DNA of 62,486 nt, counting the filler, from Hausera hauseri (lineage: Eukaryota): NCBI GenBank assembly GCA_046269625.1. It is 12 parts of 12 records of this genome, joined end to end, with 100 filler letters (N's around TTAATTAATTAA, not from the genome) between each part and the next. Parts side by side here need not be neighbours in the genome. Positions count along the whole stretch, not along the records: positions 10,233 to 18,065 come from JBJURY010901869.1; 11 more parts are not named here. One strand, given 5' to 3'. This document shows, piece by piece, positions 1,293 through 60,449 of this stretch. The notes under the pieces were generated by a model. The model did no database searches, was not told the origin of the DNA, and worked only from the letters and a program-made list of their open reading frames with translations. The translations under genes were made by a program, and so were the position numbers. Every line of letters begins with the position of its first letter. Positions within the stretch are counted from its first letter, which is position 1.

Positions 1293-1523
1293 TTTGAGTC
1301 CTTTGCAATTGGGAAAAGGAAGAGTCGTATCTTCTCTATTTGGATAATAACACTGGCACAAATACCTTTGAATACCAGTAAAAGGTACGCACTTATTATT
1401 CTCAACAATTGAACATGCCTCATTTCCGGACAATGATGAGCCTTCTGGAGCTCTAATACATGCATTATACTGCTCCTTACAATCAGTATCAGACTCATAA
1501 CCTCGTCTACATCTACATCTAAC
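1293..1523 (-). CDS. Internal exon encoding tandem EGF-like repeats
   Basis: 231-nt phase-0 exon between TTCAG| and |GTAAG. Translates stop-free as VRCRCRRGYESDTDCKEQYNACIRAPEGSSLSGNEACSIVENNKCVPFTGIQRYLCQCYYPNREDTTLPFPNCKGLK, with the CxCxxGY...C EGF pattern. Other exons not resolved. Confidence 0.7.
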
Positions 1524-2664: not shown

Positions 2665-3025
2665 ACAAACGTGATTGTAATATAAGCCACAATAAGCATT
2701 AATATCCACACACTAGAGTCATTGGATGTTGAAAATGAACTCGATTATATTCAAAACGGTATGATGATGGTGACTGCCGTTCAATTTGAGAAATTTTAAC
2801 AATGACGGATAGTAAAATCCAAGAGGATTGAATACTCTGACGACGGTCGGATGGACGTACACTGCAATTCAATGTTCGCCCGGCAAAGATGAAGTTTGTG
2901 TATTGACAATAAAGCCGCCAGTTTGTCGTAAATCACGCGGCACAATCCAGTGGAAACACGCCACGAAATTTCACGCCCAAGAGTAGTTTTCCGTAATGAC
3001 TGAGCTCAGTGGAGCTAAATGCAAA
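2665..3025 (-). pseudogene. Maverick adenain-type cysteine protease, disrupted
   Basis: Manual translation across frameshifts: FRGVFPLD..GGFIVNTQTSSLPGEH*IAVY..FNPLG..YNRVHFQHPMTLVCGY*CLLWL. Catalytic H and Q-x5-C motifs are present; in-frame stops. Confidence 0.85.
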
Positions 3026-3102
3026 ATGTGATTTAAGTATAATAGTAATCAAATAAATTACTTTATAGTACGACGAAAAGGTGAGACACAGCGGATTTTA
3101 TT

Positions 3103-4250
3103 TATACAATGACGGTTCCGTTTTTCGTTATTTCAACATCGGCGTCAATTACACCGAAAATATACATCACGGTAGATTACTCCAACGCTTTAGTAAAGTG
3201 AACCTCCAGTCGTAGGTTTGCCTACTGAGTAGTTGAGTCTGCTCAATGTCATAGTCCGGAGCCAAGACAAATGTGTAGAATGGATAGGTGGACTTGAACA
3301 AATCCATCGATATGCGATTGTTGATGTTTTTGTTCAACAAACCCATGTTGCACACGATAGATTGCATATATGTTCAAACGTAATCGCCGGTCTCGAAATT
3401 CTGCTTGTAAAACTCAACGAAATCCGCATTCTTACCCAAACTGATGTAATTCACATTGCTATGGGTAAACGTTATCGAATCGGTGGTATAACTGCCCGTT
3501 TGTTGAGCAGTCGTTTGAAATATAGCAAACACAAATTTCAGCAATCGCATGTCGCCAAACAGTGCACCTTTGTAAAGCGTAGTTCAACCTTTGGGTATGG
3601 TGTAAAACACGAGTTCTGTACGTTGTAATGGGTAACAGGCATTTTGTGTTTCCAAGCCCAATAGACGTCCCATGAGCACAGATGGTTCTACCTTTACTCC
3701 ATGTACGTATAATCGTGTCTCGGTAATTTTCAGTATGGGTTTGAGATTTTCAATAACGGTATTCAAACAAAAGACACGGTCGCTGCGTTTGAGCCGAATC
3801 ATGGCTTTAACACAGGACAGTAGGTATTTCGGCTGATCGAAAAAGTGAAAGTACAGCGGTCCACACATGGTAAGCGCTTTTGATTCTGCCACCCATGAGT
3901 GATGGTTTGCTGCAGTGGCGTCATATCCGATGGTTTTCGTCAAATGAGTCGTTTTCGTATCTGTACTGTAATTCAGAGCCTTTTCAATAAGTGCTTTGAT
4001 ACTGTACAGACTGATGTTCTCTTCAATTTTGACGCCGTTTAGAGTCAGTGACGCCTTCTGGAACAATGTGAGGAAAAGGTAAGTGGCCGGTGTGACAGTG
4101 TCTGTTGCCCCGAAAACTGTTGATGCATCCTTTTTAGCAGTGACTTGTACATAGAGTAGCACGATAGATTTCTTTAAATGCTGCATTGTCAATAACAACT
4201 TTTAGTGAAGCTTTGTCAAATACACACAATTCAGATTTTGCAGATGCCAT
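3103..4250 (-). pseudogene. Maverick double-jelly-roll major capsid protein, disrupted
   Basis: Starts MASAKSELCVFD. ORF 3584-4198 has LFQKASLTLNG, IEKALNYSTDTK, FFDQPKYLL, RLKRSDRVFCL, YPLQRTELVFYTIPKG; the C-terminus has NLRLEVHFTKAL. Stops, frameshifts and an internal deletion. Confidence 0.9.
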
Positions 4251-4265
4251 TTGTCTGTCTGTCTG

Positions 4266-4588
4266 TCAATCGAAAATCGTACGACAACGGCGTTTGTTTA
4301 AAGTTGATGAGCTCGATGATGCTCTACGACGTTTTTTCAAGCCACTGCCAGCGAATTGTTTTTTGACTGATTCAACGACTCCCTGTGCAGCGTTTTTTAT
4401 TTCTGTCAAGGCGTGTTCCTTCAGTGATGGTAAAATAGATTTGTTTTCATATGTACATCCTTTCCTGTTTTTGCTGCCACGGTTTCAATACATTTCAACA
4501 CCGGAAATGGTAAACGTGCTAATGTTTGCAACCATCCAGAGCCATACTGTTTACCAACGAAATACGGCAATTCACCACCCTGCTGGAG
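4266..4588 (-). pseudogene. Maverick small core-type protein (PW-like) upstream of MCP
   Basis: LQQGGELPYFVGKQYGSGWLQTLARL...GKDV, then after a frameshift QFAGSGLKKRRR...TIFD*. QxGG/QxGxG motifs and a basic tail are typical of this Maverick gene. Confidence 0.75.
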
Positions 4589-4589
4589 T

Positions 4590-4689
4590 NNNNNNNNNNN
4601 NNNNNNNNNNNNNNNNNNNNNNNNNNNNNNNNNTTAATTAATTAANNNNNNNNNNNNNNNNNNNNNNNNNNNNNNNNNNNNNNNNNNNN
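4590..4689. other. Artificial contig-joining spacer (one of 11)
   Basis: 44N-TTAATTAATTAA-44N, stops in all six frames. Identical copies at 10133, 18066, 22995, 28383, 32729, 39366, 44419, 49157, 53278 and 57553. Confidence 0.99.
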
Positions 4690-7200
4690 CCACGAACTGG
4701 ACAATTTCGACATTAAGGAATTGCAAGTGTGCTATTGATGGTATACTTTTCCTATTAAGGATCCCACGTAAATATACAAATCTAAATTATATTAGTTTTT
4801 CCAAATTTTGTAAAGAATAAATTTTGAAATTTATAAAAGATTCTTTCGTTGGTAGGTTATGTTCGATATCGTCGTTTTTTAAATTCTGACACTTTAGCTT
4901 ATTTTTGTTCTCGTCGACCGTGGCCATACCTCAGTTGAATTTAGTACACTCTTACTCCCGCTACTGGTATTTACTCCAATGTTTTCCAGCTGTTCTTCAA
5001 ACGTTGGAACTAGTATGTCTAGAAGTGACTGTAGAACGAAAAAAAAAACCAAACACGCAACGAATCTGTTACATCAACAAAGAACACTCGATATCTCTTC
5101 ACATTCAACATTTTACATACATTCACAACAATTTCGATATACAATCCTGTTGATATAATATAAATTTAACAAATTGTAGCGACGAGTATAGCTAACAGAT
5201 ATTATAATTAAATTTTTTGGAATCATCGATGTCCATAGTCTAGAGCCTGTAATGACAGAACAGTCCGAAATTTGCAGATGGAAAGTTTAATACCCGATGA
5301 ACTCGATTATATTTAATACATAGTCTCTGATAATGTCATCTTGATTCGCCGGTAGACGTAGAATTATCCATCTTTTATTTTCTTGAAGGATGTCCCAACA
5401 TCCCATCTCGTTCTGTCAAAAAGAAACTGTTCATAAATTCATTTGATTTACAATTCTTTAAGAGATTATCTTCATATAGGATTTGTGGTGTTATTAATTC
5501 TTTAGGAATCAAGTTTGTTGAATATTCATTTAGTTGAAAAACCCAAATGTCATGTATCGTTAATGATTTAAGTTCATCTGTAATTCTGTCACTGAGTTTT
5601 TTACATCCATTTCAAATGAGCGTAGTTAAGGCGGTTGAAATTGTAGCTAAAGCGACTATAGAATTCAGTCGTTTCCTTTTCAAGTTAAATTTTTGAAATT
5701 ATTCAATTTTATTGATTCCATTATTCTATCTGGTATTTCCTTTTTAAGAAAACTATAATGAAAATTCCCAATTAGATCAAATTTAATTCATCTTTTTCAA
5801 CGTCTTTCCTCTGTAATCTCTGATTCTATTTTTCGCATAATTTTAAACTAACATCGCAAAACCCCCGATAGATTTGGAATAGAAACAAATGACAATATGA
5901 TCGATCAAATGAGCGACTAAATCGTTTGAATGAAAGCAATTCGAAAATAGTTCGAAATACAATTGGAAAGTATTTAAATTTAGCAACTTCAGATATCCTT
6001 TTATAATTATAATAATTGTAATGGACAATTATAATAATAACAATGTTCTTTCTGAGAAAATTGATTTTTGACATGTTGACTAACATTTATAACATTTGTA
6101 AAGTTTTTAAATCACTTTTCAAAGATATTCGAATTCAATTGTTAATTTAAGATTGATAGCTTCTATTTTTGTTCTGATTTCTAATTTTTTCATAGAAATT
6201 GTAATGTCTCGTCTGTTCCACGCATTAATTCAGGTGTACATATTTTTCTCAACATTATGTAAAGGTCGATCAAGACTGTAAAGGTGACTCCGGAGATCGT
6301 CGAAGGAGTGATATAAACAAATGAATTTATATAAATGAGACATGTCGTAATGTTACGCCGTAAAGAAGCACATGTATTTATACTGAAATGTAACAAGAAA
6401 GACATGCGAAATAAATTATATTGATTCACAAAAACAAACATATCAAAATATCATATATATTTATGATTAAATACGGCCAATCAAATTTTTCATTACAATA
6501 CAAAGCGAAGCAGAAAATACAAGTCCAATAGGAAAATTAATCCGCCGTTATTGTTGCCGTTTGCATCTCATTTCATCCTCGATACGTTCTACGAAGAGAG
6601 ATATGATCATAAATTCAATATATTCTTGTTTCTGTGAGTTCACATAAAAACCGTACGTCAAACACATGTCCAGTCATTACATCATCGGTCAATTTCTGAA
6701 TTTCACTTTCAATGTACTGTTCCATTTGATTAGTAGTAATAGTAAAAGAAGTATGGGATATAAATGTTTATAACAGAGTAAGGAAAAATTTCACAGACCA
6801 TTGGGGTTATGTTTAATATTTAATTTTACTAGTTTATGTATTTTAATTTATTTTATTTATAATTTTAATCTATTTTGAATGCTAATTTGTTTAAATTTAG
6901 AAATGTAAGCGATATCCCATGTATTGCGTCTCGAGCATACGTGTGACGCAGGAGCAGTGCCATCAGCAGATGGCTAAATATTACTCCGTTGGCACGGACT
7001 CATATTTGCGCCAAACATGCGGTAGTATTTCGGCCTCTTGTCCATACCCCAACTTTTATGTGATGCACAAGCATCATCTTGGACGGTTTACGCGTGCAAA
7101 GAAGATGATGGTTACGCATTACCCCAGATACCCGCGATACTGTAGTAGTAGTAATAGAGTGAATGACGTTGATGTTGCCATATTGTAATTGAGCAGTGCT

Positions 7201-9739
7201 ATGGCGCCACAACGATTCACGGTAAACGGGTGTACGTTTGTCCTAGTTGTTCTGTAGTTGATGAAATCAACTATGAACAATTTTATAACGAGCACAAGGA
7301 CCACTTAAACCAGTTTCAGCGGTGCAAAAAGGAAATAGTGAATGCGAAAAGAAAAACCTGTGTCCCCTCAACAAGTAGGAAACGTCAGGCCTCAATAAGT
7401 CTTGATGACTTAATCCGAAACAGCACCGAACAGCAGCAGCAGGAGCAGATGTAACAGCAGGAACCTTCCATTACTGTCAAGTACGATCTAGTTTGAATTA
7501 GAGTTGGAGAAATTCAAACTCAACAACTGCAAAGTGCAACTTGCAGAATTTGAAAACAGTGAAGGTGACAGGAAGCAATGGCGTCGAGTCCTACCATATT
7601 CGGAAGATTTTATTTCCGATGTAGGTGAAAAGTTGAATAAGAATTTCGCCAGATATACAGAAAAGGGTAGTGGATGGCAAATTATACGAATTGTCACACT
7701 CCGCTTTATCATGAAAAAGTCGAGTGATGTGGTATATTTGTCTCGATGATCATTCATAACGACACCTGCAGCTCTGAAGCAGTCTCTGGATATAGTGAAT
7801 GTAAAAAATACTAACGATTAATACTGTTTTCTTTACAGTATTCTGGCTGTATTGAAGTACAGCGAAGTGAACAGATATCATGCCAATCGTCCAAATCAGG
7901 ATCGGAAGTACTTTTTGAATCGCAAGTTGGTGAATGCTGGATGCCGATGAAACTGAAAACCATTCACGCTTTTGAACGGCGTAATCCAACGCTGTCAATC
8001 AACGTTTTCCGGTACAACACAATAGTTGAAATACTGGAAGACGAAGAAATTTATAAGAACCCACATGTGTACATAATTTATCGCAGTCGGAACCCGAATG
8101 GACGCTAGGTAAATTTGTTGCTGTTGAAGCAGGCCGAAAATTTTCATTATGTGGCAGTGACCAATATGGATAGACTGTTGAACATGAAGCATGACTAGGT
8201 CATCAAAAAGCGAATTCGATGCAAATGGTGTCCTGCATGTCTTCATGGATTCATATCGGGAACACCGTGGAGAAACATTTCACGCTATGAAGGCAAAATG
8301 CATCAGGGACAACAATGTACAACATGTCCGTCAAAAAAGAGCTCAGATTCTGTAACTGATCTAAAAGGAACAGTCCGGCATATATGATGTATGCTGATAT
8401 CGAAGCAATTCTACCACGCCACAATGTATACAATCAAAAGCATGTTCCAATTGACGTCGGTATGTTGCTAGTACCAATAAAAGCTGCCGAAAAACCGTAG
8501 TTTTACGTTTTCCATGGTTGGAACTGTGTATGTAATTTCCTGCAGCAGTTGGAAGCCATAGTAGAAACGGAAATCGCGCCGTTGTATCCCAATAATTGCA
8601 ATAAGCCATTGATTTGAACAGACGAATATCAAGCGTTGCTTTTCGCTGTCACCGATGAATGCTATCTGTGTCACAAAATATTGCCCTTTGATGCACAGGA
8701 ACGGCTCGTACCGGATCACGATCATTCCACCGGTAGATACTTGGGAGCAGCATGCAATTCATGCAATTTAGCAAGGCAAGTGCGACCATTACTGCCGGTG
8801 GTCTTTCATAATTTCCGAGGTTAAGACTGTCACCATATTCTCAAATAAGCCATTAACGGCTTTCGCACTGGAAACTGTCCATAATCCCAACAACTATGGA
8901 GAAATACCTATCGCTGTCGGCACGAGTAAACCGATTCCAGGTACGCATCCTCGATTCATTGAAATTTCTCAAAGAATCATTGGCAGTGTTGGTAAATGCT
9001 TTGCCAAATGTGCTGATAGTACTGACACAGTTCCCTACACATATTGCACGCAGCAAAGGCAGAGGAATTACCGTGCGATGTACAGGTATCTCAGAAGATG
9101 AATATCGGAGAGCACAAGAATCTTGGACAGAACTGGGCTGTAGAAACATGTTGGATTACATGCTCCAGTATCTTAAACTGGACGTGTACTTATTAGCCTA
9201 TGTGTTCCAGGCGTTTCGAGCAAAATTGTTGGCGCAAGATAGGCTGGAGCCACTCAACTTTTACTCAATGCCCGGAATGAGTTGGGCATCAGCTCTAATG
9301 TCATTGGATCGGGATATCGAGCTATTGCAAGACCCGGAAATGTACAGAATGTTTGATGTTGGTATTCGTGGTTGCATGACATTTGTCAACATATATCACG
9401 TAACCAGTGATGATAACACATCACTGTTGTATATAGACATTAATAATCTGTACGGCTGGGCACTTTCATAACCCTTGCCGTACGGTTCATTCGAATGGGT
9501 AGTCGACAAACAGGACCTGGACACAATACTGGAAAATGTGTCGAAATCAGACACGACAACAGCATAAAACAGCTCAATTTGATACCTGATGGATGTCAAT
9601 CTCGTGTTATCAGACAAGCTGCATGACTTTTTGGATTAACTGCCGGTCGCACCAATTAGCCAATGTCCACCGGGCTAGAAGGTAAAGAAGCTGCTTATGA
9701 TGCATTAAGCCTAGCAAAATTACATAGCTCATTGGCGTC
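7201..9739 (+). pseudogene. Maverick protein-primed family B DNA polymerase (pPolB), disrupted and 3'-truncated
   Basis: YTEKGSGW; KNTND*YCFLYSIL; ExoI YADIEAIL; inserted CYLC..DHDHSTGRYLGAACNSCNL (endonuclease VII/HNH-like); ExoII FHNFRG*D; ILDSLKFL; ExoIII YLKLDVYLL; motif A LLYIDINNLYGWALS*PLPYG. Ends at NYIAHWR, before motifs B and C. Confidence 0.93.
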
Positions 9740-10132: not shown

Positions 10133-10776
10133 NNNNNNNNNNNNNNNNNNNNNNNNNNNNNNNNNNNNNNNNNNNNTTAATTAATTAANNNNNNNNNNNN
10201 NNNNNNNNNNNNNNNNNNNNNNNNNNNNNNNNACCAAAGCAATCCCCTAGCAGTTTATGATTATGTTAATCGTGAATTAAAAAGTCATTACTATAAATGG
10301 AAAATAATACTTTTGAGCATCATTTACATCGCTGAGTATCAACAGTTCGAATGCTGTTTAATTTGCGATCACGTTGTCCTTCAAGTTTATTTTGGCAAAC
10401 ACAAACCTGTGAGGGTAGCTATGTCAAGTATGCTACAAACAATTACTTGCTTTTTTATTACACGAGTTACCCACCATGTTCTTCGAATAAACGCCTGCAG
10501 TCAGTTCAAGGCTCCACACTCTAGTTTCATTCTGGTAAGGATTACATTATACGAACTTCATAAAACATTTCCAGTACACACATAGGCTGTACAGTAGAAA
10601 AATCTATCAGTAAATTCCACGCTGTTTTACTTCATACCAAAAATCAGATCCACATTTTGTGACGAAGTCAGTTGGTATTGGGACACATATTTTGTTCTTC
10701 ATTCCCCGATCAATATATTACTGTAACTCGGCGACGTATCTGGACAGAACCTATTTCTAACTTTCGGACATTATAA

Positions 10777-11682
10777 GTGACTGTTTCTTTGGTGATTAAA
10801 GCAATTTATACCATTTGGGGTGCATGTTTTTGGAACGAAATTTTGTCGTATAAAATACAGGATATTTCTTCTTTTATGTTTAGGTTTTTCTTTTGGTCTC
10901 TAGTAAATACATTATTAAACTTTATTCCTAATATTTGGCCAAACGACGAATCTATATTAAATATTATTAATGTTGTACTTTTTTCAACCGAGGAGGTTCC
11001 GTGCATGGAGGTTCGTTGTCCTATGGCCCCAGAAACTTACATAGAGTATTTGATAAGTCCACCCTATAAGCCGATTTCCCTGTTAGATACGTACTCTGAA
11101 CGGAAAGGTCGTCGCGAATTTCTCATTACGTATCATGAACCTCTTGACGATAGGTTAGTCGTCATCTCTATTGAATTATTTTTAGTGAAGGAGTATACCT
11201 TCAGTGAAAGAGCCATGTTAATTGATTCACGACATAAACATTGGACATCATTAACTGATAAACTGTGCAGTGTTCTTGATGAATACGAAGTGAGTCCCAT
11301 GTATTCTTCCGTTACAATGAATATTCTGCTCGATGACAATTGTTGGTACAATTTTGTTGAACTTAGTCTACACAATAATCCAATTTACTACTTTATGCGA
11401 CGTTTCGTTCTACCGATTCCACTGAAACTCAATTTCAGACGAAATAGGTTTCTTACTTTCCCGCCCTCGGTACAGTTTTCAAATTTAAATCCCATTGAAC
11501 TTGATTTCAACGTTTGTCGGACGTTTAACACAAAAAGTCTGCCAAAAATTCTGTCATGTTTCTATCCGGAATTGATGTGCATTATCGACGATAAATTTAC
11601 CAATTATTTTTCGGTCGTATCAAATTTCTTATTCGTGGTAGCTAAGATACTTATGCGAAATGTAGCCCAGAGTCACTGGTAG
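10777..11682 (+). CDS. Orphan ORF (about 300 aa; same frame resumes after one stop at 11695)
   Basis: 906-nt stop-free frame in AT-rich DNA; no domain recognised; start uncertain. Confidence 0.45.
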   Translation: MTVSLVIKAIYTIWGACFWNEILSYKIQDISSFMFRFFFWSLVNTLLNFIPNIWPNDESILNIINVVLFSTEEVPCMEVRCPMAPETYIEYLISPPYKPISLLDTYSERKGRREFLITYHEPLDDRLVVISIELFLVKEYTFSERAMLIDSRHKHWTSLTDKLCSVLDEYEVSPMYSSVTMNILLDDNCWYNFVELSLHNNPIYYFMRRFVLPIPLKLNFRRNRFLTFPPSVQFSNLNPIELDFNVCRTFNTKSLPKILSCFYPELMCIIDDKFTNYFSVVSNFLFVVAKILMRNVAQSHW

Positions 11683-12152
11683 GAAGAACTGAAAATGAAT
11701 TTTAAAGAGAATGTTGAAATGCTCTTTCTTAATTCTCAACTACAGAAATTGATCATTGAAGAAATATACTTAAATTTTCAGGGCATTTCTCGGCGCATCA
11801 CTGGGTCTTTCTTGAACTCCTTCTTAATGAATGCCGACAAAGAATCTACACTTCAGTACGTCGATCCCACCACGGAAATTACTGTCATCTCTACGGTTAA
11901 TTCGCCCGACCGAGGTTTTTTTGCTCCGGTAATTCGGCGCTGTCGTGGTGGAACTACGACTCCTGTTGCTCGCACGGCGACCGTGGGGCTCGGGGTGGAA
12001 TGCGCTAGGGTGCTGCACTACCACCATTTTCCATTTTCTGTTTTTACATAATACTTTGTGCATTCCCTATACTTAACAAAACATATAAACATTACTCACT
12101 TACACGACCGCATTCGCACAATAACTCATATCCGATTTTTATCTGACTCACA

Positions 12153-13337
12153 ATGGCTTCACTTTTGCTAGTCTTCAAGATATCACTTTTTCTCCATCTC
12201 CCCTCCGCCTTCACATCAACCTCAGAATCCGTGATGGAATGCTATCTTCGCCAACAAACGACACCACAGATAAGGCCATTGCAAAATCTAAATCCGTTGT
12301 CTATTATCCAAAATCAACCAACAAAACCTCTTCACCTGATCTTATCTTTTCGCCTAAAACCACTCCTACTACACCCTCACATTGTACCGAATATTTTATA
12401 AACGACGAAAATTCTAGCACGACACGCCTTAACTTCCAGCAACTCTGGTTACAATCCAATGGCATCACTGATTCGCTAGCCAAAGCTCATAACCTACTTT
12501 GTCTTTTACAGACTACAGTAAAAACGTCCATTCNNNNNNNNNNCATGACTTTCTAGACATATTCCAGCAACCTAATCCATACACCTATCTTTACAATGAC
12601 GTTTTAAAACTTACCGAACCATCTATGGACTCCATAATTCATAGGTTCTTTAACCACAATGCTATGGGAAAGCAAAAACCGTCAGATTTCCTTAGAACTT
12701 CGCTCGCTCAACTTCAAACACTTGGTATAACTAAACAACACAATGCCGATCTTTTGCGACGCTACTTCTTGAACACATTGCCCATACAAATTAGGGCCTT
12801 ACTTACCGTCGTCGAAGAATCGACGATGCTTGAAAAATTGGCCAAACTGTCAGACAAAACATACGAGATTTGGCATGTACATACTCAACCAGTCATTTCC
12901 GCAGCCGTTACTACCAATAACATTACATTCAAACAGCAGTTAAATCAACTACGAGCCGAAAATGCGGCCTTACAAACAACAATAAGTAAAATCAACAATA
13001 AACTTAACGAGATTTCATTGACTCGACGGGTGGGTTTTGTTTCTGACCGTACTTGTTCCGTATCTGGAGGCCGGTCACGATTGCCTGGGCGATCACTGAT
13101 TTGCTATTATCACGGTTGACTCGATAAGAAAGCACAAAGTGCCATATTGGGTGCAAATTTTACACCCAGAAGCACCATACTAACAACATTGTTTGCATAT
13201 ACCGTGCAAAATTTAGGCATAATGCGCACAAATGCATCTCAGGTTGTACTTTTAACAGCAACACACAGTATTCAAACGACGGATATGCTAGCTTCATTTC
13301 TAACAGCCGTTCAGGTTCCCCTCTTTCAAAAAACTAA
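12153..13337 (+). pseudogene. gag with two CHCC-type motifs
   Basis: MGKQKPSDFLR..LLRRYFLNTLPIQIRALL..LAKLSDK capsid region, then CYYHG*LDKKAQ(K)CHIGC and CIYRAKFRHNAHKCISGC. Ends TCA AAA AAC TAA. Confidence 0.85.
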
Positions 13338-13361
13338 CTCCGTCGCCAGAGTTTACGGCGA
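13328..13361 (+). promoter_or_regulatory. Candidate -1 ribosomal frameshift site (gag-pol)
   Basis: A AAA AAC heptamer at 13328-13334, directly before the gag stop. The -1 frame is open into protease ORF 13382-13636. TCGCC/GGCGA stem 8 nt downstream. Confidence 0.75.
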
Positions 13362-16300
13362 GCACAGGCAACGGCCATTCTTTGCTTTTTGATAGCAGAA
13401 AAATTTCTTTCGCTGTACTCACGTTGAGAGCTTCTACCATAACACCACCATTTCAATACATAAACTTTATTATCAACACAGGTGCAGTGATATCGCTATT
13501 ACCGCTCACCTTTCCAGTTCAAACCGTACCATCTAAAACAAAATGTCTTTTTACAGCTTCCGGACAGTCGTTACACGCTTCCGGCACCACTAGACTCTCT
13601 TTCACTTTGCCAAACTTTAATTCAAAGTTTCGTTAAACATTTACCGTTGCAAATGTCCAGACAACCATTCTAGGGTCTGATTTTCTATCTCATTGCAATC
13701 TTCTGGTGGACTGTAAACAACATTGTTTACAAATGGCCGCAGGAATCAAATTGGCCAGATAAATGGCGTTTCAGCTTTCTCGCAAATGAGGGTCACACGG
13801 AAGCCAACATTAAAAACGTCTTCGAATAAACAGATTTTTTTCAAATAATCATAACTTATTTCATAAATTTTTAAAATGAGATATTTATACGGAATCGACA
13901 TTGGACGTTGACAACTATGATTTTTTCGCGACCGTGAAAACACTCAATAAAATTACTGCCTCAAATACAATATTCAACACGACCATACTGCAACAAATAC
14001 ATCTCGATCTTAAGCCACCAAGTAAGTTCCATATTTTAACTGTTAATGATAAAACTATCTCGCCTTTACCCGATCTTCCACAATTACATAAAAGTCTGCA
14101 ACAGTACGTTAATACATCATGTACTAGCGTAATTTAAAAAGATAGGTCTTTTATACCAACAAACAGCAATTTTCACAACATAGTAACACAACACCAAAGA
14201 CCTCTTCGCCAAAATGTACGTCCATTATCTCCGCGCCGCTGACAGACCATTGAAACCGAATTCCTAGATCTTGAACGCTCTGGCATAGTATATCGATCCA
14301 AGTCTCCATGGTCTTCGCCTTTACATGTTGTTCAAAAAAGGACGGATCGTTTCGACCATGCGGTGACTATCGGCAACAAAACTCTTTGACCATAATGGAT
14401 GCGTACCCATTACCATTGATAAAATACATATCACATCGTCTCAACGACACCAAAATCTATTCTACTACTGATCTAACCCAGGCTTATCACCAAATCCCGG
14501 TGGCACCCGCAGATATCGAAAAAACCACCGTTACTACACCATTCGGCTTTTACGTATATTTATATATGCCTTTTGGTCTAAGGAATGCGGCACAAACCTT
14601 CCAACGTCACATAGATGCAATACTTTCTGATCTTCCTTACGCTCATCCCTACATTGATGACATTCTAGTTGCTTCTTTATCCAGTAAACAGCATGAGAAA
14701 CATATACGATCTACCTTTCACTGTTTACACCAACACAACCTCCAGATAAACTTTACAAAATGTCATTTCTTTCAACGACGCATAAATTTCCTCGAACATG
14801 TTATCTCTTCTGAAGGGCATTCTCCTCAGCCTGACCGAATTGAAACCCTCAAAAACGTTCAATTACCGCGAACAACCACTGGAATGAGGAGCTTACTCGG
14901 CACATTGCATTTTGTACACAAGTATGTCCCATATTTCTCAGAGCTAACCGCACCCTTTGCTCATTTAAGTGGCGGAAAAAAGCATCAGCCAATACTGTGG
15001 ATGCCAGAACTGCAAGATAAGTTTGATAAATTACGGGAGGGCCTAAAAAACAGTTGAAATATTAGCACCTCCTCAGCCACACACTGAGCTTATTCTTACT
15101 ACAGACGCCTCTACTACTGCCGTAGGCGCTGTACTGCACCAGATTTATGAAGGCGAAAATCAACCGCTGGAGTTCTTTTCACGCAAAGTAACACCTCCTG
15201 AAACCAGATACTCCACTTTCCACGAGAACTACTGGTGATAGTTCTCGCTTTAAAACACTTCGCATTTACTCACTGCCCGCCGTTTCACAATACAAATTGA
15301 TCATAAACCTCTCATAAATGTCAGGACGATGAAACAACCATCTACTCGGCAAAAACGACAGATATCGTACTTGTCGACATTTAATTTCGAAATTAATCAT
15401 ATTAATGGCGTTAACAACTTAGTCGCGGATTTTTTGTCTAAGTCAATTGGCTCAATTAATTTTAAACACATTTTCACTCAAAATCAACTTCAGGAAAACC
15501 AGCCACCTCAAGACATTCTTAAATCCTGTAAATCGTGGAACATCGTTAATGGCGTGGCCTTAGACACGTCTAAACCAAAACAGTCTAAAATAATCTTAGC
15601 ACCTGCTTTGCAAACACAGGCTTTCAACAGTGTGCATTCTCTACGCCATCCTGGTGCTAAGGCCACTTTTCACTTACTTCAATGAAAGGTAGTTTGGCCG
15701 TTAATACGTTCCGCTGTGCAAGCGTGGATTAAGGACTGCGTGTCTTGCCAGAAATTTAAAACCACCAAGCATTTGAAGCCACCATTATATCATTTCCCTT
15801 GCACATCGCGTTTCAAGTCCGTTCATATAGATCTTGTCGGTCCTCTTACTCCAGACAATGGCCATCAATTCATCTTGATCATGATGGACCGTTCCTCTAG
15901 ATGGCCAGACGCCGTCCCACTGAGAAGCTCAAACACGGACACGATAGCTGAAGTTTTTATCCGCACTTGGCTCAGCAGGTTTGGATCTCCTAGATTTATC
16001 ATTTCGGACCAAGATCCCTAATTCAAATCCAACCTGTTCAAATCACTCGTTAACCGATTGGGAATCAGCCATAAACACACAACGCCTTATCATCCCAAAT
16101 AGAATGGTCTTACTGATAGATTCCACAGAACACTGAAAACGTGGTTAAAATTCTCGCTGAATCCAACAGTAGTTGGACAGTTCTTCTTCCGTTGGTCTTG
16201 CTTGGCTGGCGGAACACCCCATCCACTTCTACAAGATGCTCACCTACCGAAGCCTTGTTTGGAGCGCCTGTACGTTCTTTGAGCTAACAGCCCTAGAGGA

Positions 16301-17037
16301 TACGCCTACAGATGAAACGATCCGAGCAGCACAGGACCACTTCGTCGCAGTCAGTAAAGACTCGTTCTGTAGAATACTACATAACGATAAAACATATTTA
16401 CCCGATAATTTATATTCTGCAAAGTTTGTTTGGCTAAGGAATCAAACGCCGTGTGGTTTTCAACCGCAGTATCTAGGGCCATATAAGCTAACTCAACTAC
16501 ATTCTCACAACACTGACATTCTTAAAGACGGCAAGTAACTGGTAGTCCATATAAATAAGGTAAAACCTGCTTTTTTGTAAACAACACCTCTCCAACCGAA
16601 ACTTCGACAGACTTTCTCACTCCTGCATCTCCTTCTGTTCCTGCTTCTGCCTCCATTTTCATTTCATCTTCTATTCCTGTTTCTGTTTCCACATCTATTT
16701 CACCTTCTACTCCTATCCCTATTCCTACTACGGTTTCTCCTTCCGCTCCTTCACCTGTTACTACTTCTCCTTTCAACTTCTTATCTTTGGGAACTCTCTT
16801 CAACAATTTCAATTATTCACTTTCAGTTACTTCTTTTTCTTCTTCTGTTTTACCTCCAAAGGACACTACACTCAACACGACAAAATATAACATCGTTTCT
16901 CCCCAAGAATTTCAGCAAACAGAGGCAAAAGCAAAAACATGTCGCAAAACTGTCACTTTGTGCAAGTACAGTAAGGAGAGAAACATCGAAGGTGTTGAGG
17001 TGTATTATATCCTGCAACCTCAAACTAAAATATTTGA

Positions 17038-18018
17038 TTATACATTCACTTTGACAATTTTGACTTTGATATATTGTCAGTAACCAGTGGATTTATGATT
17101 GGAAGCAGTCTAGTACCCATGGTTAAAGCCAGAACATGTAATAAAGAGGCGTATGCCTATAATCGAACGATGGATGTAATATTAGTAATGTTGCTGATAT
17201 CATTTGTCATTGCATTAATTAGTTACATCGTCATATTGATTAAGAAGTCTTATAGAATACGGAATGAAGCGCGAAGAAGAGAACAGTTAATATTGGACGT
17301 GGAAACAGCAAATAAGGAACCACCTCCAAAGTATGACGACGTCTCGATTAAGTCAGCACGTATTTATAAACAAATAGCAATACCTATGGCCTTGTCAGCA
17401 CTCAACGTAACTTCAGCTGAAGCAAGCCAATATAAATATGCAGTTATTCCTGACCTACCAGTTGTAGATTATAAATCATTTTTATTACTAATGTTCCTAA
17501 TCGTGTTAGCTAGTAGTACAGTAGTCGCATTAATAGTGTTAGCATTTTATAAATTTTGTCGAGCGGTAAAATTCTATCAAAGGCTAACCAAACAATCACC
17601 CCCTCCTGATTATGAAGAAAACCAAGGAAATTATGGTAGGCCAAATCCAATACTTCTGTCTACCCTAGTAATGTGTTGTCTAATTGGAAACAGTACTGCC
17701 CAACCAATCCACTCAGATGAACAGGATTACTCGAAATATGTAAAATTTATATCATACGTATTAGCGATATATTCAGTCGAGCAATTAATGGAGTTAGTTC
17801 GATTTGCGAGGCAACAGTGGGAAGAGCAAAAACAATTCAGTAGAGAGAAATTCATGGGGAAATTTTCTGACATATTAGTTCCTAGAATAGTACTAAATTA
17901 CATGATACCTAGAGTAGAAATAACTGAAAACTCATGGACAAAAAATCCTTATATACAATGTTTGTCAAAAGAGTCGTCTACCATCCCTGCAAAAGAAGTG
18001 GTTAAAAGCCGTACATGA
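17038..18018 (+). CDS. Multi-membrane ORF with repeated signal-TM-PPxY units, origin unknown
   Basis: About 980-nt open frame. TMs VILVMLLISFVIALISYIVILI and FLLLMFLIVLASSTVVALIVLAFY are each followed by basic residues and PPPKY (17320-17334) or PPPDY (17599-17613). Confidence 0.7.
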   Translation, partial: LYIHFDNFDFDILSVTSGFMIGSSLVPMVKARTCNKEAYAYNRTMDVILVMLLISFVIALISYIVILIKKSYRIRNEARRREQLILDVETANKEPPPKYDDVSIKSARIYKQIAIPMALSALNVTSAEASQYKYAVIPDLPVVDYKSFLLLMFLIVLASSTVVALIVLAFYKFCRAVKFYQRLTKQSPPPDYEENQGNYGRPNPILLSTLVMCCLIGNSTAQPIHSDEQDYSKYVKFISYVLAIYSVEQLMELVRFARQQWEEQKQFSREKFMGKFSDILVPRIVLNYMIPRVEITENSWTKNPYIQCLSKESSTIPAKEVVKSRT

Positions 18019-18165
18019 TCAAGAGCGGAGTTATACGACATACCCTGGATGGAAGATGAAGAAATNNNNNNNNNNNNNNNNNNNNNNNNNNNNNNNNNNN
18101 NNNNNNNNNTTAATTAATTAANNNNNNNNNNNNNNNNNNNNNNNNNNNNNNNNNNNNNNNNNNNN

Positions 18166-21834: not shown

Positions 21835-22119
21835 TGTGGTGCCCACCGCGTCCGGTGCCCTTTGGCCCATTTGGTTGGGCACGGCCTGGCGTTCGCTATC
21901 GCCGCGTCGGACCCATAGTCGGGCCCGAACTTCCGCCTCGAAAATTCCACAATTCCTCCTATCTTATTCAGAAATTCCACAGTAAAAAGCTGTTAAAGCA
22001 AAACCTTTGAACCTCGACCACTCCTCAGACAAATCGAAATACTCTACTTAGCAGACGCACAATTTCTCAAACGGATGAACAAATCGAAAAAACAAAGTTA
22101 TTCACGTGAAACTGCTGAC

Positions 22120-22994
22120 TCAATCATATAATTCCTCAGGAAACTCCTGTAGAGCAATCATTCTCTTTAGTAGAGTTGGTCCTTTCGTTATTCCTTCATC
22201 TATTTCTTCATCTGGAAATTTGTCGAGATGGATCATGTCCAAATCATATTCGTTGAAGTCGGTAATATTTATGTCGTCCCCGCAGCTGTAATCGGTCGTG
22301 TCACAAAGACCATCTTGCACCACATCGACTGGTGTTTGAGTTTTCTCTTTGTTTATTTTGACATCTCCAGGTCGGTATAAACGTATTTTCCTCGTAGTAG
22401 GTTTCCTTTTGATTTTGGATGGTATTCCTCCAACCGTTTCAGGTGAATTAATTTAGGTTTCTTCTGAGTAAGTTACGTTTTTGCATGTTGTGTCTTTTCT
22501 ACTTGTTTTTGAGGTGGTCCTTTCAATTTGTTCATTCTTTGTTTCAGATCTATTTCTTTGTTATTTTCTGTTTCATCAATTATCAGTGGAGGTTCATAAT
22601 CTGAAAGGGGTTCATTTCCTTCCTTTCTTCTTATTTTATTTATAAATATCTTGCAGCCTGGAGAAAATTTAATTCCTTTTAATCGTTTTAAAAAATCATC
22701 AGTGGTTTCCACTCCTTCGGTAAGTTCCTCGATGGTTACTGGAGGTACCATAAGAGGATATTCATCGTTAATATATTTTTCAGAAATCAAAGTTAGTTTA
22801 TCCTCAATTTCTTGCTCTTACTTATCCAAATCTGTCTCATTGGATACGCATTGATACAATTCATTGCTTTCCTTAAGAATTTTGGTTAGCTTTTTCTCAT
22901 TATCTTCGGTACTTTTTATACCAAGATTTCTCAATCTTTCGATAAGTAAATTAATTCTCTTTTTGAGATTTACTGATTTATCTATAACCGAATT
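22120..22994 (-). pseudogene. Unidentified decayed, charged/coiled-coil coding fragment
   Basis: Consecutive ORFs (22473-22790, 22120-22323) with strong A-rich coding bias, interrupted by stops. No motif recognised. Confidence 0.4.
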
Positions 22995-23094: not shown

Positions 23095-26000
23095 TTCATC
23101 ACTAGTATAACATGAATTGCTAGTTGTTTCATAGCTTGACACAACCAAATCGATGGATCCCGTAGACATATTTGATCCATCTGAGCTGACAACTGAAATG
23201 AGACCAACAATTGAGGGATTTATCCAAATTTTATTTGATTCGCCATTAGTTCCAATCCAATAGATTATACCCTTTTTATCAAAATCGTTAGTATACTTAA
23301 ATTCCAATTTTTCATGAGTTGTCTCTGCACACAGTTTGAAAAAGTGATACGTACTTCTTGGATAATCAAACCATTGTTTTAGAGTCTTTTCCAATATGTA
23401 TTTTTCCAATTGTTCAACTGTCACAAGAGGTTTAACTTTCATCGTTTTATCAGTTCGGTCATAAAGTGCATCTTCGTCGGCACCCTTCAGTAATGTCAGC
23501 TTAAAGGGACGTGATAATAGTTGTCCATTGGTCGAAATAACAGCTGGTGAGATACCAAGACTGTTATTTGTACCAGATCCAATGTTGTTGTAACAAAATA
23601 TCGGGAAACGTTCTAAATGTTCCAATGATTGGATGCATTTCTTTACCAAATTAGCTCCCGTCAAATTAAAACATTTCTTGAATACATTAACACGGCGTTC
23701 TAAATGGATACAAGAGAAACAATTTGTTTTGCATTGCGAATAACCTAGACTGATGAGCAGTGAAGACAGAACATTACTCACGATTAACTCATACGCAGTA
23801 ATGTTCATTTCATCCAAAAGTAACTCGCTAAGTTTATTGAAACAATCTTCGATGTCAATAAGATTGTCGTCTTGATGAGCTTTTAACAACCGATCCGACA
23901 AACTTCGTAAGTTTCCAAGATTTTCATTCAATTCTAATTCTTTTTCTGGTGTCAATTCACGATTTTTGGAACCAACCGACGGTGCTTGTCGGACCAACTT
24001 TTCATACACAATCTGCGCTAATTGGTGGATTTTACTACGAATAAATTCCGAATGAGACTTCATTTTTTTGAAAACTTGCTTTGTGTGCCAGAATGGTGTA
24101 TCCGATTTATGCTCTACGTGCTCCAGCAATTCTCCACTTGAATATTGACATGATACACTTTTAGCTTCTTCGGCACTTACCATTTGAGATATTTTCTTCG
24201 TTAGTTTAATCCCTCTACTGTAATCACCAAGGATTAAATATTCGGACAAAAGAGAATTTGATGCATCATCATTAGTCACAGTAATAACAAGAATGTCATT
24301 CTCAGCAGTGTGACTAAACAAAATACCTTTGAATATACGACTAGTACTCCGATTAGATATGGAAAACAAATTCTTGGACACACTTTTTGACTGAATATTT
24401 AAAAGTTCAGTGGAGAACACTTTAAACAGATCTTCCCGAGATGATTTATCTAAATTTCCAAAGAAACTATTTGGTTTGTTTTGAACGGCAATTGATAGCT
24501 TTAATTCATTATTTTTCAATGATTCAGAAGATAAATCGGTTTCGATCAAGGCTTTAGAATTGAATAAGAACACGGAATTATTTGTGAAGAAACTGCTCCA
24601 TTCACGCCAATAGTACTGATTATATATAATGAGATTGTCTGCAATTGGCATCACTGACATTTGGAAATCGATGAAACACTGGCCTTCGGCCTGCAAGTTC
24701 CTGAACGGTGCCAAAGTGTTCTCTATAACAGCATGAATTCTCGGAACGACACCCAATCTGGCGAACGGTTTCATATACTTTTCCGAACATTTACTCAGAA
24801 ATTCTTTACTCATTTCCAATGCAAGTAACATTTTCCTCGTCGCTATCGGTAAGAATAGAGAACACCACTTGTGTGATGCAATACGAAAATAGAACGTGAT
24901 TTAATCTCATGTCGGAAATTTTATCTAGCAAACTCTTATTCGTATACTGGCCCATCTTTTTTAATAGAGACAATGAATTACGTTTGACATTGCTATTCAG
25001 TGTCTCTTTGAAATTATTCAGAATAACTTGCATTAACTTTTCAAGAAAGATCATTTGAATTTCGGGATCTAACAGTTCTTCGGAATTTTTCGACTCTGTT
25101 TCTTCGAACGCAGATTGGTAACATTCTGCAACAGAAAGTATCTGTATAACTTCTTGGTGATTGCTATCATTAGCTTTCTCTCGAGCTTTGTCAATCGGTG
25201 GTTTACCTTCTTCGTCTTGCAAATGCGGATTAGCGTTGTATCGAAGCAGCACTTTAACAATATCTGGTTTACCAAAACAGGCTGCATAATGCAAAGATGA
25301 TGAACGAACACTTTTATCGACATCTGCACCACGTGCACAAAGATACTCTACCATTTCAGTCGTTCCAAAGACACAAGCCCAATTTAAAGGAGATTGTCCC
25401 ATTTCATCGCTGCAATCAATATGGAAGTTTCCATTTTCGAAAGTGTCAATAAAAACGTTTGTATCTTTGCTTCGGATTGCTTCAACAAGACTTCTTAAAG
25501 CCAAATCTTTCTTCCAAGCCGACGATGATATCGGGGAAATATCAATTGTTTTCGATGACTGCAATTTATCCGACAGTTGTTTGCTCGAATCGGACAATTT
25601 CGAATCAGAATTGTCCTCAGTTCGTTGTTCAACTAAAGTCTCCTTTCTATCCTTGACCGACAAAGCCCGGTGGCCTTGAAACAGCAACATCAAAAACGTA
25701 TCAATCAATCGCGGCAACACATCGCCAATCATTAAATCGGGCTGGGTAGAAATCATATCGGCTAACGTCGATGCTAAATCTTCCGAAATCAAAAACCAGC
25801 ACATCAGTTGTTTAAAACCCCGACAAAACGCCAAAATTAGATTGCTGAGACTCTCAACTTGACTACTGTTATTTTGTAAACCATTTGTTGAATCGCGTTG
25901 ATTGTTGACTTTCTTTACGTATTCTATCAATTCACCGGCGTATATCTCCGAACCAGTTTTGCAAGAATGTAGCAAAATTTCTGAAGGTTTTCTGATAGTA

Positions 26001-27466
26001 ATTTGTTCTTCATTCTTGCAGATTACGTTTGTAGATTGTGAGACTGTGTCATTGTTTGATGAGACATTTGCAAAAAGGATTTTTATAACATCCAATGCCA
26101 TATAATTGACGTCACATTCATGTGCCAACCCTTCAGTTAATTTCTCATAATTCTTCACGTTTTGAAGAACCATCGATAGCAGTTCAAAATTGTTACCAAT
26201 TTCACTAAATAAGTCCATTATCAGCCACAATGTGAACAAAACTTTTCGATGTTTAAGTCGAATTTCTGATTTCGTTTTGTTATTTATTTCATTTTGTAAC
26301 TGAAATATGTCCGACTGGATTACGTCCCATTCACCGTTTTGGAGTTTTTGTTTGAACACATCCAATTTTGCTTGTTCTGATTTGCTATCGAATTCCGCCC
26401 TTAAGACATTTTTACTAATCGTAACAATATTTTCAAATTCGTTTATGCACTCGACGACTTTCGTTACATAATATTCACATTTTACAGTTAAACGTAACAA
26501 ATCTAATTCGTCCATGTCAAGAATTTTTTGATTTTTGTCTTGTACATGCAACCACAATCGTTTGTCAAATGGACATGGAGTTGAACCGTCATTCAGAAAA
26601 TTGAAACAACGTTTGCATAGAGCATGTTTACACGGATTTAGTATGACATAATCGACAGTTTGATAAGATTCAAAACAAATTCCACATTCGGTTTGATTGT
26701 AGTACATAATTTGTCTGTTTTGGATAATGTTGACTCCAACAGCTTTCTGCAAACGATTGACTAACTGGCTCAGTAATTCATCACTGGCAACTTTCGTTGG
26801 ATCATGGCCTTGTCGATTGAATCTTTCAACTAAGTTGGAAAAGTATTTTAATGTTAAATCGCTGATTGACGAATTTTTATGTTCGAGAAAACGACTTAAA
26901 CACTTCACCCAACCGGTTAAATCGATATCTGTGGCCGATGCCTTGCTGCATAACTTCGTTGTAGACTCCATCGCAGATGAAATTATGTCACCGTGCAATT
27001 TTCTACTGTAATTATAAACAAAATTTAGTATATATGTCAATTCACCGAGTTCATAAACTAACGATGATTCTCTGTTGCAAATTGTCTGTAATAATTTAAT
27101 AATCTGCTGTCCTAATTCATTGCTTTTCTCGTCCTTCATTTCAACGACGTCCAATCGTGCTGCTATTGCTTTTACGGCACCAGGAGCTTGAACAACTCTC
27201 CGAGCACATTCATTTGATAAATCCAAATAATACGTTATTGCTCGAGCATCAGCTTTTAATACCAAATCCGGGGCAGTCTCATCAAGAAATATTTTACATA
27301 ATGCCGGTAAAAATGTTAACGGTTGATATCGTTCGAAAAACGTATCAACATTGTCCGAAAAAAGTACGTCATTACAAAGTTGTTCTAAAGCCATTAGTTG
27401 AATTTCTCGTGACTCACTACCGTCCATTTGTAACCATTCTAACACTGTTACTGGATCAGCTTCCAT
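23095..27466 (-). CDS. HECTD1: HECTD1-like E3 ubiquitin ligase, N-terminal half, with RING insertion and one frameshift
   Basis: MEADPVTVLEWLQM..IQLMALEQLC..FLPALCKIFLDETAPD N-terminus; ankyrin repeats (GQSPLNWACVFGT, SSSLHYAACFG); LYDRTDKTMKVKPL..KQWFD..DFDKKGIIYWIGTN. Frameshift near 24830; no introns seen. The HECT domain would lie beyond the contig end. Confidence 0.93.
26564..26686 (-). other. RING finger (C3HC3D type) inside the HECTD1 frame
   Basis: CGIC-x14-CKH-x2-CKRC-x10-CPFD. Confidence 0.88.
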
Positions 27467-29774
27467 CTGCAACGGTAAATAGGCAATAAAAATTATGACT
27501 TTCAGAAATAAGTTTTTTAAAAATTTAAATTTATTGAACAATATTCGAAAATAATGAACGCAGTTAAACAATCAAATTATTCATAAATGCGGAATTAACT
27601 GTGGCACATAAAATGATCATTCGGTACTTCTCATTACTAATGTCATATATAACATGTATATTATTCAGAGTTATCAGCAAAAAACGGATCTAGTGTCGGC
27701 TATTTACACTGATATACTATTTTTTGCTGATCACCAAATTTTCGGGAACCGATTCTGTGAAGACGGATAGTCCTGTGAAATATATTCTGCCTGGTTCTTT
27801 TCAATCTAAAAGTAAAACAAATCACTTATATACAGAGTTGCAATGGTACTCTAACACTTGGATTGAGAATTCTTATTCGATATTGGTGATTTAGAATTTT
27901 AAATTTATTTTCTGTTATAGCAGTAAATTATATTATCTTAAATAATTCAACAATGAGATTGTAAGCCTTTGTCGTTTCTCATTAGTCGATGCAAATTTGT
28001 AGGATCGCAGTACTTCATGCACACAGTACTTTTTATTGTGTTCCAAATTACTTTTAGGCACATGCACTTATGAAGTATACCACAATTTATCTGTGTATGC
28101 ATGCATAGATAATTTTGAATTTTTGTCTACATTTTCAGTTGCGAATTCTGAACCATATTGGACACTTAAAATAAAACCGTGCTTTATCTATTTATCATAA
28201 AGGCCATCTTTAACGTTATTTTGTAAAATTTCAGAAAATATTACTAAAATAATAGTATAAGTAAGAGAACTAGAAGATTTCATATCAATTTATACTTCGA
28301 ATATATAATTGACATTATTCAAACAAATTATCATATTTTCTAACTTCCCTCTCCCGCCGTTTTGTTGTTTAACGTCACTCTTNNNNNNNNNNNNNNNNNN
28401 NNNNNNNNNNNNNNNNNNNNNNNNNNTTAATTAATTAANNNNNNNNNNNNNNNNNNNNNNNNNNNNNNNNNNNNNNNNNNNNTATTGTCTGATTATAGTA
28501 TTATTTGACCTGTTTTACAACATTTACAATCTGAATTATTTGATGCCATATTTAATGCATATTTTATAATTAAAGTGTTGGGAGTCGTTGTATTATGGTT
28601 GCAATGGGTTGGGTTTTCAAATTTTTATTATTATTTTATTTTTATTATTTGCGAACGAATGAAATTTAAAAAAAATTAAGACGCTAACCCGTACCAGCCA
28701 TTATACCATTTTTAATGCCGGAAATTGTATTAACGTAAAAAATTTCGGATTAATACCATGTAAAAAAGGGAGTTTTTCGAATATTAAAACAACAAAATAA
28801 AAATAAAAGTATGTCGGGTGAATCAGACTATCATGCACTAACCCTTCACAACTTCGTTATTTTGATGTTCTACGCCGTTTCGAAGAATTTTGAGAATAAG
28901 ACATTTTCCAAATTTGAAAAAATATTCTTTTTTATTTTGAATGTACAAATTTATTAAATAATTCGGGTTCAGTGATACTGAAAAATTTACATCAATCTCT
29001 GTTACTTCCCATCTTAAATTATTTGTAAAATAATACTAAATCCTAACGGAAACTGTACAAAAATATATTCAATGAAAATTAATTGCCTTTTACTATTTGT
29101 TTATTCACAGGCGTTTATTCCGTCATTGTATACATCGACTTTCTGACTTAAATAATTTATTCTTGTTTGATGATCTTCGAGGCAAATTTGACATTTGATG
29201 TATCCGGCATTTTTACTACGATTTAATTGAAATGTACAAGATTCATCATGATATCCACAATATTTTAGATTAAATTCCAAATTAGAAAGTAATTCTTTCT
29301 AAAGTTATGTTGTTGAGATATGTTTGACATCAGATCGATAATTGGTGATGAGCATTAAGATATTGTGGTAATGAAATCGTGATAATGACACATGTTAATC
29401 CCCTTCCATAAAAGTCCAGAAATTTTACGGAACCGAAATTTTACGGAACCGATAAATTCAGTGGGTATTTTTATGTGCTCAACATGCTTTAGTTGGGCTT
29501 GTATTGTCATTCATTACTTCCAACTTCAATCCAGGCTTTTCAACGACGATTATAAAACAAACGGTAAAAATGAAAAGATAAAATAATTGGTAACCTGCTA
29601 AACAATCAAATAAGAATATTGATTTTATTTGACACTGATATGTTCTGTTCGGTTGCCAAACAAACACAGGCCAAAAGGTAAAAAGGCAGGACGAAAACCG
29701 TGCCGGCCTAGCTGCACCGAACTGTGACCCGATTGCCAAAAATAGAGGGCCATGTCCTAAACCGTGGCACTATA

Positions 29775-57853: not shown

Positions 57854-57967
57854 TAGTATAAACAATGACGGTAAGTATATGATGATTCGGCAATATGGAT
57901 GCATGGTTTTCATCATTTTGACCCCGTTTACCGAATCTTTCATTTACGATTCGTTCTAATTGTTGTA

Positions 57968-60313: not shown

Positions 60314-60449
60314 TTGAAAATTTCTAATTGTAAATTCAATTTTCTAATTTCTATCCATTGATATTGCTATATATACCAAATATGAATTATATATATGCCA
60401 ATATGGTTATCAATTTATTATGCTGATCTTATGTTATATTTATTAGACC

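Follow-up and report, generated by a model that had tools for sequence, protein, structure and literature searches.

An orphan reading frame with two transmembrane, basic and PPxY modules and signs of amplification, next to a decayed Ty3/gypsy element of Hausera hauseri

The window analysed here is a stretch of 62,486 nucleotides (filler included) of the Hausera hauseri genome (GCA_046269625.1), one contig of which (JBJURY010901869.1) carries an open reading frame, ORF P0001, downstream of a decayed Ty3/gypsy element (Table 1). The product, of 307 to 326 amino acids, includes two strong transmembrane (TM) segments, and the frame is an orphan with striking motifs and signs of amplification. The other five frames over positions 17038-18065 contain 14 to 35 stops, and the chance of a stop-free run as long as ORF P0001 at the local composition is approximately 1e-11. 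The best Kozak-like start context in the frame is found at M45 (17170). A previous sequence-only reading had given 17038-18065 as the span, but the frame ends at a TGA codon (18016-18018), and 18065 is merely the end of the contig. The T-rich leader of the family appears to close with an acceptor-like AG at 17079-17080.

Table 1. Features of the contig carrying ORF P0001 (positions along the window)
Feature	Position	Strand	Basis or remark
ORF-bearing contig	10233..18065	.	one of 12 contigs joined by artificial N44-linker-N44 spacer
Decayed gag-like region of gypsy	12153..13119	+	position and ORF pieces; no Pfam match
gypsy reverse transcriptase fragment	14275..15057	+	Pfam RVT_1, E 1.7e-27
gypsy integrase fragments, broken	15686..16538	+	Integrase_H2C2, E 5.6e-05, rve, E 0.0014 (15686-16018); ORF pieces
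gypsy 3' UTR; PPT and 3' LTR absent	16540..17030	+	patchy likeness to three sister copies
T-rich leader of ORF family, tandem repeat in another copy	17030..17080	+	contig joint 17067 to 17044
ORF P0001, 326 codons stop to stop	17038..18018	+	first ATG 17095 (M20)
S1, weak hydrophobic leader, ends VKA	17071..17130	+	hydropathy
TM1, residues 47-68	17176..17241	+	strong; KD 19-mer ~3.0
Basic patch 1, net +5	17242..17286	+	charge count
PY motif 1, PPPKY (residues 95-99), then DDV	17320..17334	+	sequence
S2, weak putative internal signal, ends AEA, NVT sequon inside	17374..17424	+	hydropathy
TM2, residues 148-170	17479..17547	+	strong; KD 19-mer ~2.8
Basic amphipathic patch 2, net +5, juxtamembrane Cys	17548..17592	+	charge count
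PY motif 2, PPPDY (residues 188-192), then EE	17599..17613	+	sequence
S3, best putative internal signal, ends STA, NST sequon inside	17650..17700	+	hydropathy
H3, amphipathic helix with two Glu, doubtful TM	17737..17799	+	hydropathy
C-terminal soluble part, without family match	17800..18015	+	profile search
Continued open frame past the stop, 15 codons to contig end	18019..18065	+	~30 % by chance

The charge distribution around both TM segments shows a positive-inside bias: the net charge is +5 over the 15 residues downstream of each, and +1 and 0, respectively, upstream. Two or more PPxY (PY) motifs occur in 0.085 % of 100,000 shuffles of ORF P0001, and among all stop-to-stop frames of at least 50 amino acids in the window, a TM segment followed by [LP]PxY was found solely in the two cases of this frame. 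Units 1 and 2 are weakly alike (shuffle p 0.0055); unit 3 shows no significant likeness to either (shuffle p 0.38 and 0.93) and has no PPxY, and no likeness between the units was found at the DNA level. The AlphaFold2 single-sequence model has a mean pLDDT of 49.8, and is confident (10-residue blocks of pLDDT 65 to 82) only at the two TM-plus-basic helices; both PY motifs fall in non-helical loops of this low-scoring model. The repeating architecture of three units that had been proposed is thus retained for units 1 and 2, which each combine a TM segment, a basic patch and a PPPxY motif with acidic residues, but not for unit 3, which lacks the motif. Likewise, the reading of the units as TM-basic-PY adaptors is borne out by the anatomy of two units and not of three. 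For these two the adaptor anatomy is well supported, while their function is predicted.

No relative of ORF P0001 was recovered at E 0.1 among 1502 candidates in a word-indexed search of proteins of 179 to 571 amino acids, or at E 0.001 using phmmer against 1.84 billion representatives. None of the six pattern matches in IMG/VR and none of 75 in the JGI metagenomes was confirmed, the whole protein had no usable match in the ESM Atlas, and PDB sequences gave a match attributable to TM bias only (E 0.015). Foldseek comparison against BFVD, uninformative with a query model of pLDDT ~50, returned nothing at E 0.001. The Pfam models WBP-1 (E 0.11) and TMEM9 (E 0.06) both fell below the cut-off, and the look-alikes by ESM features (MLANA, TMEM207 and WBP1-like) scored between 0.78 and 0.82, all under 0.9. 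These sub-threshold PY-adaptor look-alikes reflect architecture, not kinship, and are leads only. The earlier statement that the frame fits no described family is upheld: none of the libraries searched contained a relative, and no ordinary host family matched.

Introns of the host, an animal, are very short (~40 nt); its QDPR gene has GT-AG introns of 39 nt (50282-50320) and 44 nt (50431-50474). Intron sizes of this order, together with the env type described below, tentatively suggest a parasitic flatworm. The best identity of QDPR, among the 120 of 558 matches listed (arthropods, flatworms and others), is 56 %, indicating that there is no close sequenced relative. Elsewhere in the window, two long overlapping intron-free frames (921 and ~600 amino acids; 23097-27571, minus strand) include an internal RING finger and have Pfam matches to ankyrin, ARM-like and RING families. 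We take this gene to be HECTD1-like; intron-free frames of this kind are odd in a short-intron genome, and may have arisen by retrocopying or by capture into a large element. Polinton-like pieces are present at 3584-4201, 8857-9471 and 57875-58953, with a protein-primed PolB (PF03175, E 5.9e-06) and, by eye, capsid-like and integrase-like ORFs, and ORFs of 130 and 303 amino acids (59056-60343, minus strand) adjoin the integrase-like piece.

Evidence for further copies of ORF P0001 comes from one public run (X1), in which 0.49 of the sampled words are present and whose contigs were aligned at 80 % likeness on 15700-18065 (4598 pieces); details are drawn from the 40 of 689 variant rows, six of 572 loose ends and eight of ~4,600 pieces listed. 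No RNA data set was listed as containing the sequence, a result that speaks neither for nor against expression. Between 17 and 87 X1 contigs cover the 11 listed ORF sites, and the summed depth over the ORF is 622 to 7740 per bin, compared to 4.6 to 13 for the single contigs listed, a depth which does not equate to copy number; in the low-complexity UTR it is ~300. At 17132-17463, a 329-nt contig carries 55 differences and three gaps (~83 % identical), while another matches 16470-16940 exactly. As a divergence of ~17 % is beyond the allelic range, ORF P0001 belongs to a multi-copy family. The many diverged copies expected of an env-bearing LTR element are thus seen, as many diverged X1 contigs in this one run. 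A joint from 17336 to 17594 in one contig, which would remove unit 2, was left unused, its short side comprising only 20 letters. Among the nine listed indel rows, one lies in the ORF and five in the 500-nt UTR (p 0.019, overstated since these five come from about two contigs). Non-synonymous changes make up ten of the 11 listed sites at which the window copy differs from nearly all other contigs, with 78 % expected at random; none of the 11 makes a stop or touches a PY motif, and one is the -3 position of S2. The predominance of non-synonymous copy-specific changes suggests neutral decay, in a dead copy of a family that has kept its frame, and the window copy of ORF P0001 is thus probably dead and drifting.

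Three sister copies of the gypsy element in the window run from the 3' UTR into a polypurine tract (PPT) and LTR, with no extra ORF. Comparison of 60-nt windows against dinucleotide shuffles gave successive z values of 3.1, 1.2, -0.9, 2.6, 2.3 and 1.2 between 16850 and 17059, with the likeness to the sister UTRs fading at ~17000-17030. From 17030 on there is no gypsy likeness (z -0.6 to -1.9), whereas a PPT window of a sister copy reaches a z of 11.2, and the ORF family therefore occupies the expected place of the PPT and LTR. Its placement at the gypsy 3' end represents a nested insertion, a recombination or an added gene. A candidate LTR start ('TGTTG', ~16993) was dropped, as gypsy UTR likeness continues slightly past it, and UTR homology up to 17103 in free-gap alignments failed the shuffle test. 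The gypsy copies at 21827, 34013 and ~29790 (minus strand) have a common G-rich PPT, followed by LTRs that start with TG or TA and show little mutual likeness. Their 3' UTRs also contain a conserved TACAG/TATAG-like block. The gypsy element adjoining the ORF is itself closely preceded by a decayed C-terminal fragment of an XPB/ERCC3 helicase (10777-11682, plus strand; PF16203, E 2.1e-09).

The fourfold sites of ORF P0001 (n 123) have an A fraction of 0.50 and a C fraction of 0.13. Such a composition sets the ORF apart from the genes of its own gypsy element (p 0.0003), from five fragments of host ORFs (p 0.0004), from a second gypsy reverse transcriptase (p 0.012) and from the Polinton pieces (p 0.022). 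It is alike in the broken ORFs of a contig carrying a gB-type env (44519-49156; p 0.38), in those at 22120-22994 (p 0.42) and in a LINE-like fragment (p 0.49). On its minus strand, the gB-env contig encodes a broken fusion glycoprotein of the gB type (Monjiviricetes; PF24664, E 1.7e-11), for which searching found no relatives, preceded by ~3.3 kb of broken A-rich ORFs without family match. The contig probably represents either an errantivirus-like element with env or the fossil of a virus. Neither sequence similarity nor a physical link between it and ORF P0001 was found, and no reverse transcriptase, RdRp, gag or env is linked downstream of the ORF within the 47 nt to the contig end. Next to the second gypsy copy, directly at its 3' LTR (21950-22994, minus strand), there are also broken acidic A-rich ORFs, which have no Pfam match and resemble neither the gB contig nor ORF P0001. 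The errantiviruses of Platyhelminthes are reported to have only gB-type env, in the order GAG-ENV-POL (PMC13524379), and the window gB fragment resembles, by eye, the planarian env row given there; planarian Burro elements have an in-frame env and ubiquitin-related accessory domains (PMC6431247, in part). On the basis of the A-rich silent sites shared with the gB-env contig and of these flatworm reports, the likeliest carrier is an A-rich element with env. A mobile-element or viral origin, as the sequence-only reading had it, is supported by the multiple copies, the foreign silent-site composition and the adjoining gypsy element.

The spacers of 15 and 18 amino acids and the small residues at -3 and -1 (VKA, AEA and STA) that had been described before the TM segments are present. 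Three signal peptides had been postulated; judging by the best 8-residue core on a Hessa-type scale (S1 +0.5, S2 +1.4 and S3 -1.85, with the TMs at -3.6), S3 appears to be a fair and plausible signal, but S1 and S2 appear poor, with weak cores. If translation starts at M20, S1 retains just 12 residues. The NRT sequon noted in the first spacer exists, but ends two residues before TM1. Since a sequon this near the membrane is too close for glycosylation, it is unlikely to be used. Sequons (N42, N123 and N218) account for three of the four Asn in the predicted lumenal or signal-end segments and for none of the nine other Asn (Fisher p 0.014, post hoc), a confinement which backs the alternating topology. 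Cutting at AEA and STA would leave N123 and N218 on cleaved-off signals, so that any cleavage may instead take place a few residues upstream.

Our preferred reading, which we place slightly short of an even chance, is that ORF P0001 serves an A-rich endogenous LTR element of virus-like type as an accessory gene, and encodes a predicted signal-cleaved polyprotein with two tandem PY adaptor modules. Each module would consist of a short lumenal stub, a TM segment, a basic patch and, in a flexible loop on the cytosolic side, a PPPxY motif with acidic residues. As a reverse signal-anchor, TM1 would insert N-out and leave PY1 cytosolic; S2 would return the chain to the ER lumen, TM2 would stop transfer such that PY2 is also cytosolic, and S3 would re-enter the ER lumen. 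Signal peptidase may then cut after S2 and S3, releasing two small adaptors, each with a single TM pass, along with a third product of a different kind. The PY modules are predicted to recruit NEDD4-family HECT ligases to membranes by binding to their WW domains, in the manner of Commissureless, PRRG4 and the herpesvirus proteins UL56, UL42 and U24, where they may down-regulate host surface proteins or help particle budding. The carrier element, topology, cleavage, WW binding and purpose of the product are those that we infer from the features above. Against this reading, the silent-site composition fits the LINE fragment equally well, and there is no homolog to align for conservation of the motifs or cleavage sites. 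That the family is a selected cassette of dozens to hundreds of copies, making several tiny type-I proteins by chained internal signals, two of them Commissureless-like NEDD4 adaptors, is possible though doubtful.

The weakness of S1 and S2 also suits an alternative with the same origin and PY function, which we consider unlikely but worth serious weight, namely that the product is an uncleaved multi-pass protein, or that leaky scanning, re-initiation or splicing (from M45, M117 and M212) yields each module on its own, as a signal-less type III protein. The best start context, at M45, lies directly on TM1, a start at M117 would put the NVT sequon at a usable distance of 25 residues from TM2, and the acceptor-like AG at 17080 resembles the ends of short host introns. 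However, in an uncleaved protein S2 must still cross the membrane for PY2 to be cytosolic, and small -3/-1 residues end all three segments of a frame that is kept continuous.

Quite unlikely is a third view, in which the ORF is an extra env-position gene of the adjacent gypsy subfamily, between its 3' UTR and a downstream PPT and LTR, and possibly a FAST-like spreader of the sORF2 type. The ORF directly follows the UTR on the same strand, and the depth at 16887-16961 (650 to 1500) is near that at the ORF 5' end (1300 to 2000); nor is there a loose end at the junction among the six of 572 listed. However, the depth falls to 421 in the junction bin, and no bridging contig is present among the eight of ~4,600 X1 pieces listed. 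The three sister copies pass from UTR to PPT and LTR without the ORF, and its silent sites are unlike those of its own gypsy genes. Precedent exists in the sORF2 genes found downstream of pol in seven of 22 lepidopteran consensus sequences (bioRxiv 10.1101/2025.03.14.642691, in part). Each ORF module resembles FAST/sORF2 proteins, as described in the available part of that source, in its small ectodomain, single TM, polybasic patch and amphipathic helix, and both occur in or beside gypsy elements. The stubs, of 15 and 18 amino acids if cleaved, fall within the 10 to 50 amino acids of the FAST/sORF2 ectodomain, and a polybasic patch (net +5) is present. In contrast, the ORF has no MGxxxS/T start for myristoylation: only M273 of its ten Met, in the C-terminal part, precedes Gly, and the predicted cleaved N-termini of the units (R, S and Q) include no MGxxxS/T. 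With 307 to 326 amino acids and several hydrophobic segments, the product also departs from the 60 to 210 amino acids and one TM given for FAST/sORF2, and PPxY is absent from the available text of the source.

Capture of an accessory gene from a rhabdo-, nyami- or chu-like negative-strand RNA virus, by template switching onto a retroelement and with later amplification, would account for the A-rich coding strand and the abrupt replacement of the gypsy 3' end, yet is improbable. Dozens of diverged copies with few indels, as seen here, are unusual for a passive viral fossil; furthermore, 16801-18065 holds no rhabdovirus-like A7 stop signal and neither IMG/VR nor BFVD provided a viral match. A putative viroporin gene between G and L in flatworm rhabdoviruses (bioRxiv 10.1101/2025.10.22.683923, in part) serves as precedent, while no accessory gene of this type occurs in the available parts of PMC9241645 or bioRxiv 10.1101/803247. 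It is highly improbable that the ORF represents one exon of a host gene, from a lineage-specific and expanded family of PY-motif membrane proteins, that lies beside gypsy by chance, for although the acceptor-like site at 17080 and the host nature of the look-alikes agree with this, and a host without close sequenced relative could alone explain the absent homologs, the composition is unlike the five host ORF fragments (p 0.0004), the 1-kb frame has no introns, the copy-specific differences look neutral and there is no cysteine-rich Shisa ectodomain.

Among known systems, units 1 and 2 are most comparable to Commissureless, PRRG1-4 and Shisa-like proteins (STMC6: WBP1, CYYR1 and VOPP1), with their short lumenal part, one TM and cytosolic L/PPxY with acidic residues. 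In the extended motif of Comm and PRRG4, the Tyr is followed by acidic and hydrophobic residues (PMC5578492, in part), and a hydrophobic residue likewise occurs after that of PY motif 1. However, these are single-module host genes, whereas ORF P0001 combines two modules and a third unit in one frame of a repeat family. It has no PRRG Gla domain and no significant match to Comm-, PRRG- or WBP1-type models, and its stubs contain one (stub 1) and no (stub 2) Cys, unlike the six-Cys STMC6 ectodomain. The herpesvirus proteins UL56, ORF0 and U24 are tail-anchored, with the PY motif before a C-terminal TM. UL42 is reported with the same arrangement, while in ORF P0001 the PY motifs follow the TM, in tandem and with putative internal signals. 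UL56, ORF0, UL42 and U24 are small membrane PPxY proteins that bind Itch despite low homology (PMC5849660, in part). They share with ORF P0001 a membrane protein with a cytosolic PPxY, the latter being predicted for the ORF. Internal signal peptides split the alphavirus E2-6K-E1 and flavivirid structural polyproteins, which have a similar alternating layout of signal, ectodomain and stop-transfer segments. Those polyproteins release large glycoproteins and viroporins, in contrast to the repeated PY adaptors predicted here. Flatworm errantiviruses and Burro elements are env-bearing LTR elements with accessory, often ubiquitin-related, domains in their polyproteins, and the available parts of the two sources make no mention of a TM-PY module (PMC13524379, PMC6431247). 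Searches of open-licence PMC and bioRxiv main texts turned up no repeat family with a tandem PY-module layout and, for any transposon, neither an accessory-protein class nor a mode of expression like those predicted here. The parts of the ORF P0001 product are of known kinds, and what appears to be new is their tandem arrangement in a repeat family.

If the preferred reading, that of a polyprotein of tandem PY adaptors carried by an A-rich LTR element, is right, a template of features (TM, basic patch and PPxY, repeated) would find genes that homology searches miss. NEDD4-recruiting membrane adaptors would have arisen within a selfish element, convergent with Commissureless and with herpesvirus UL56, UL42 and U24, and would be packed in tandem in one signal-processed frame. 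The ubiquitin-meddling kit of the giant flatworm retroelements would thereby extend to the control of membrane proteins or to budding.
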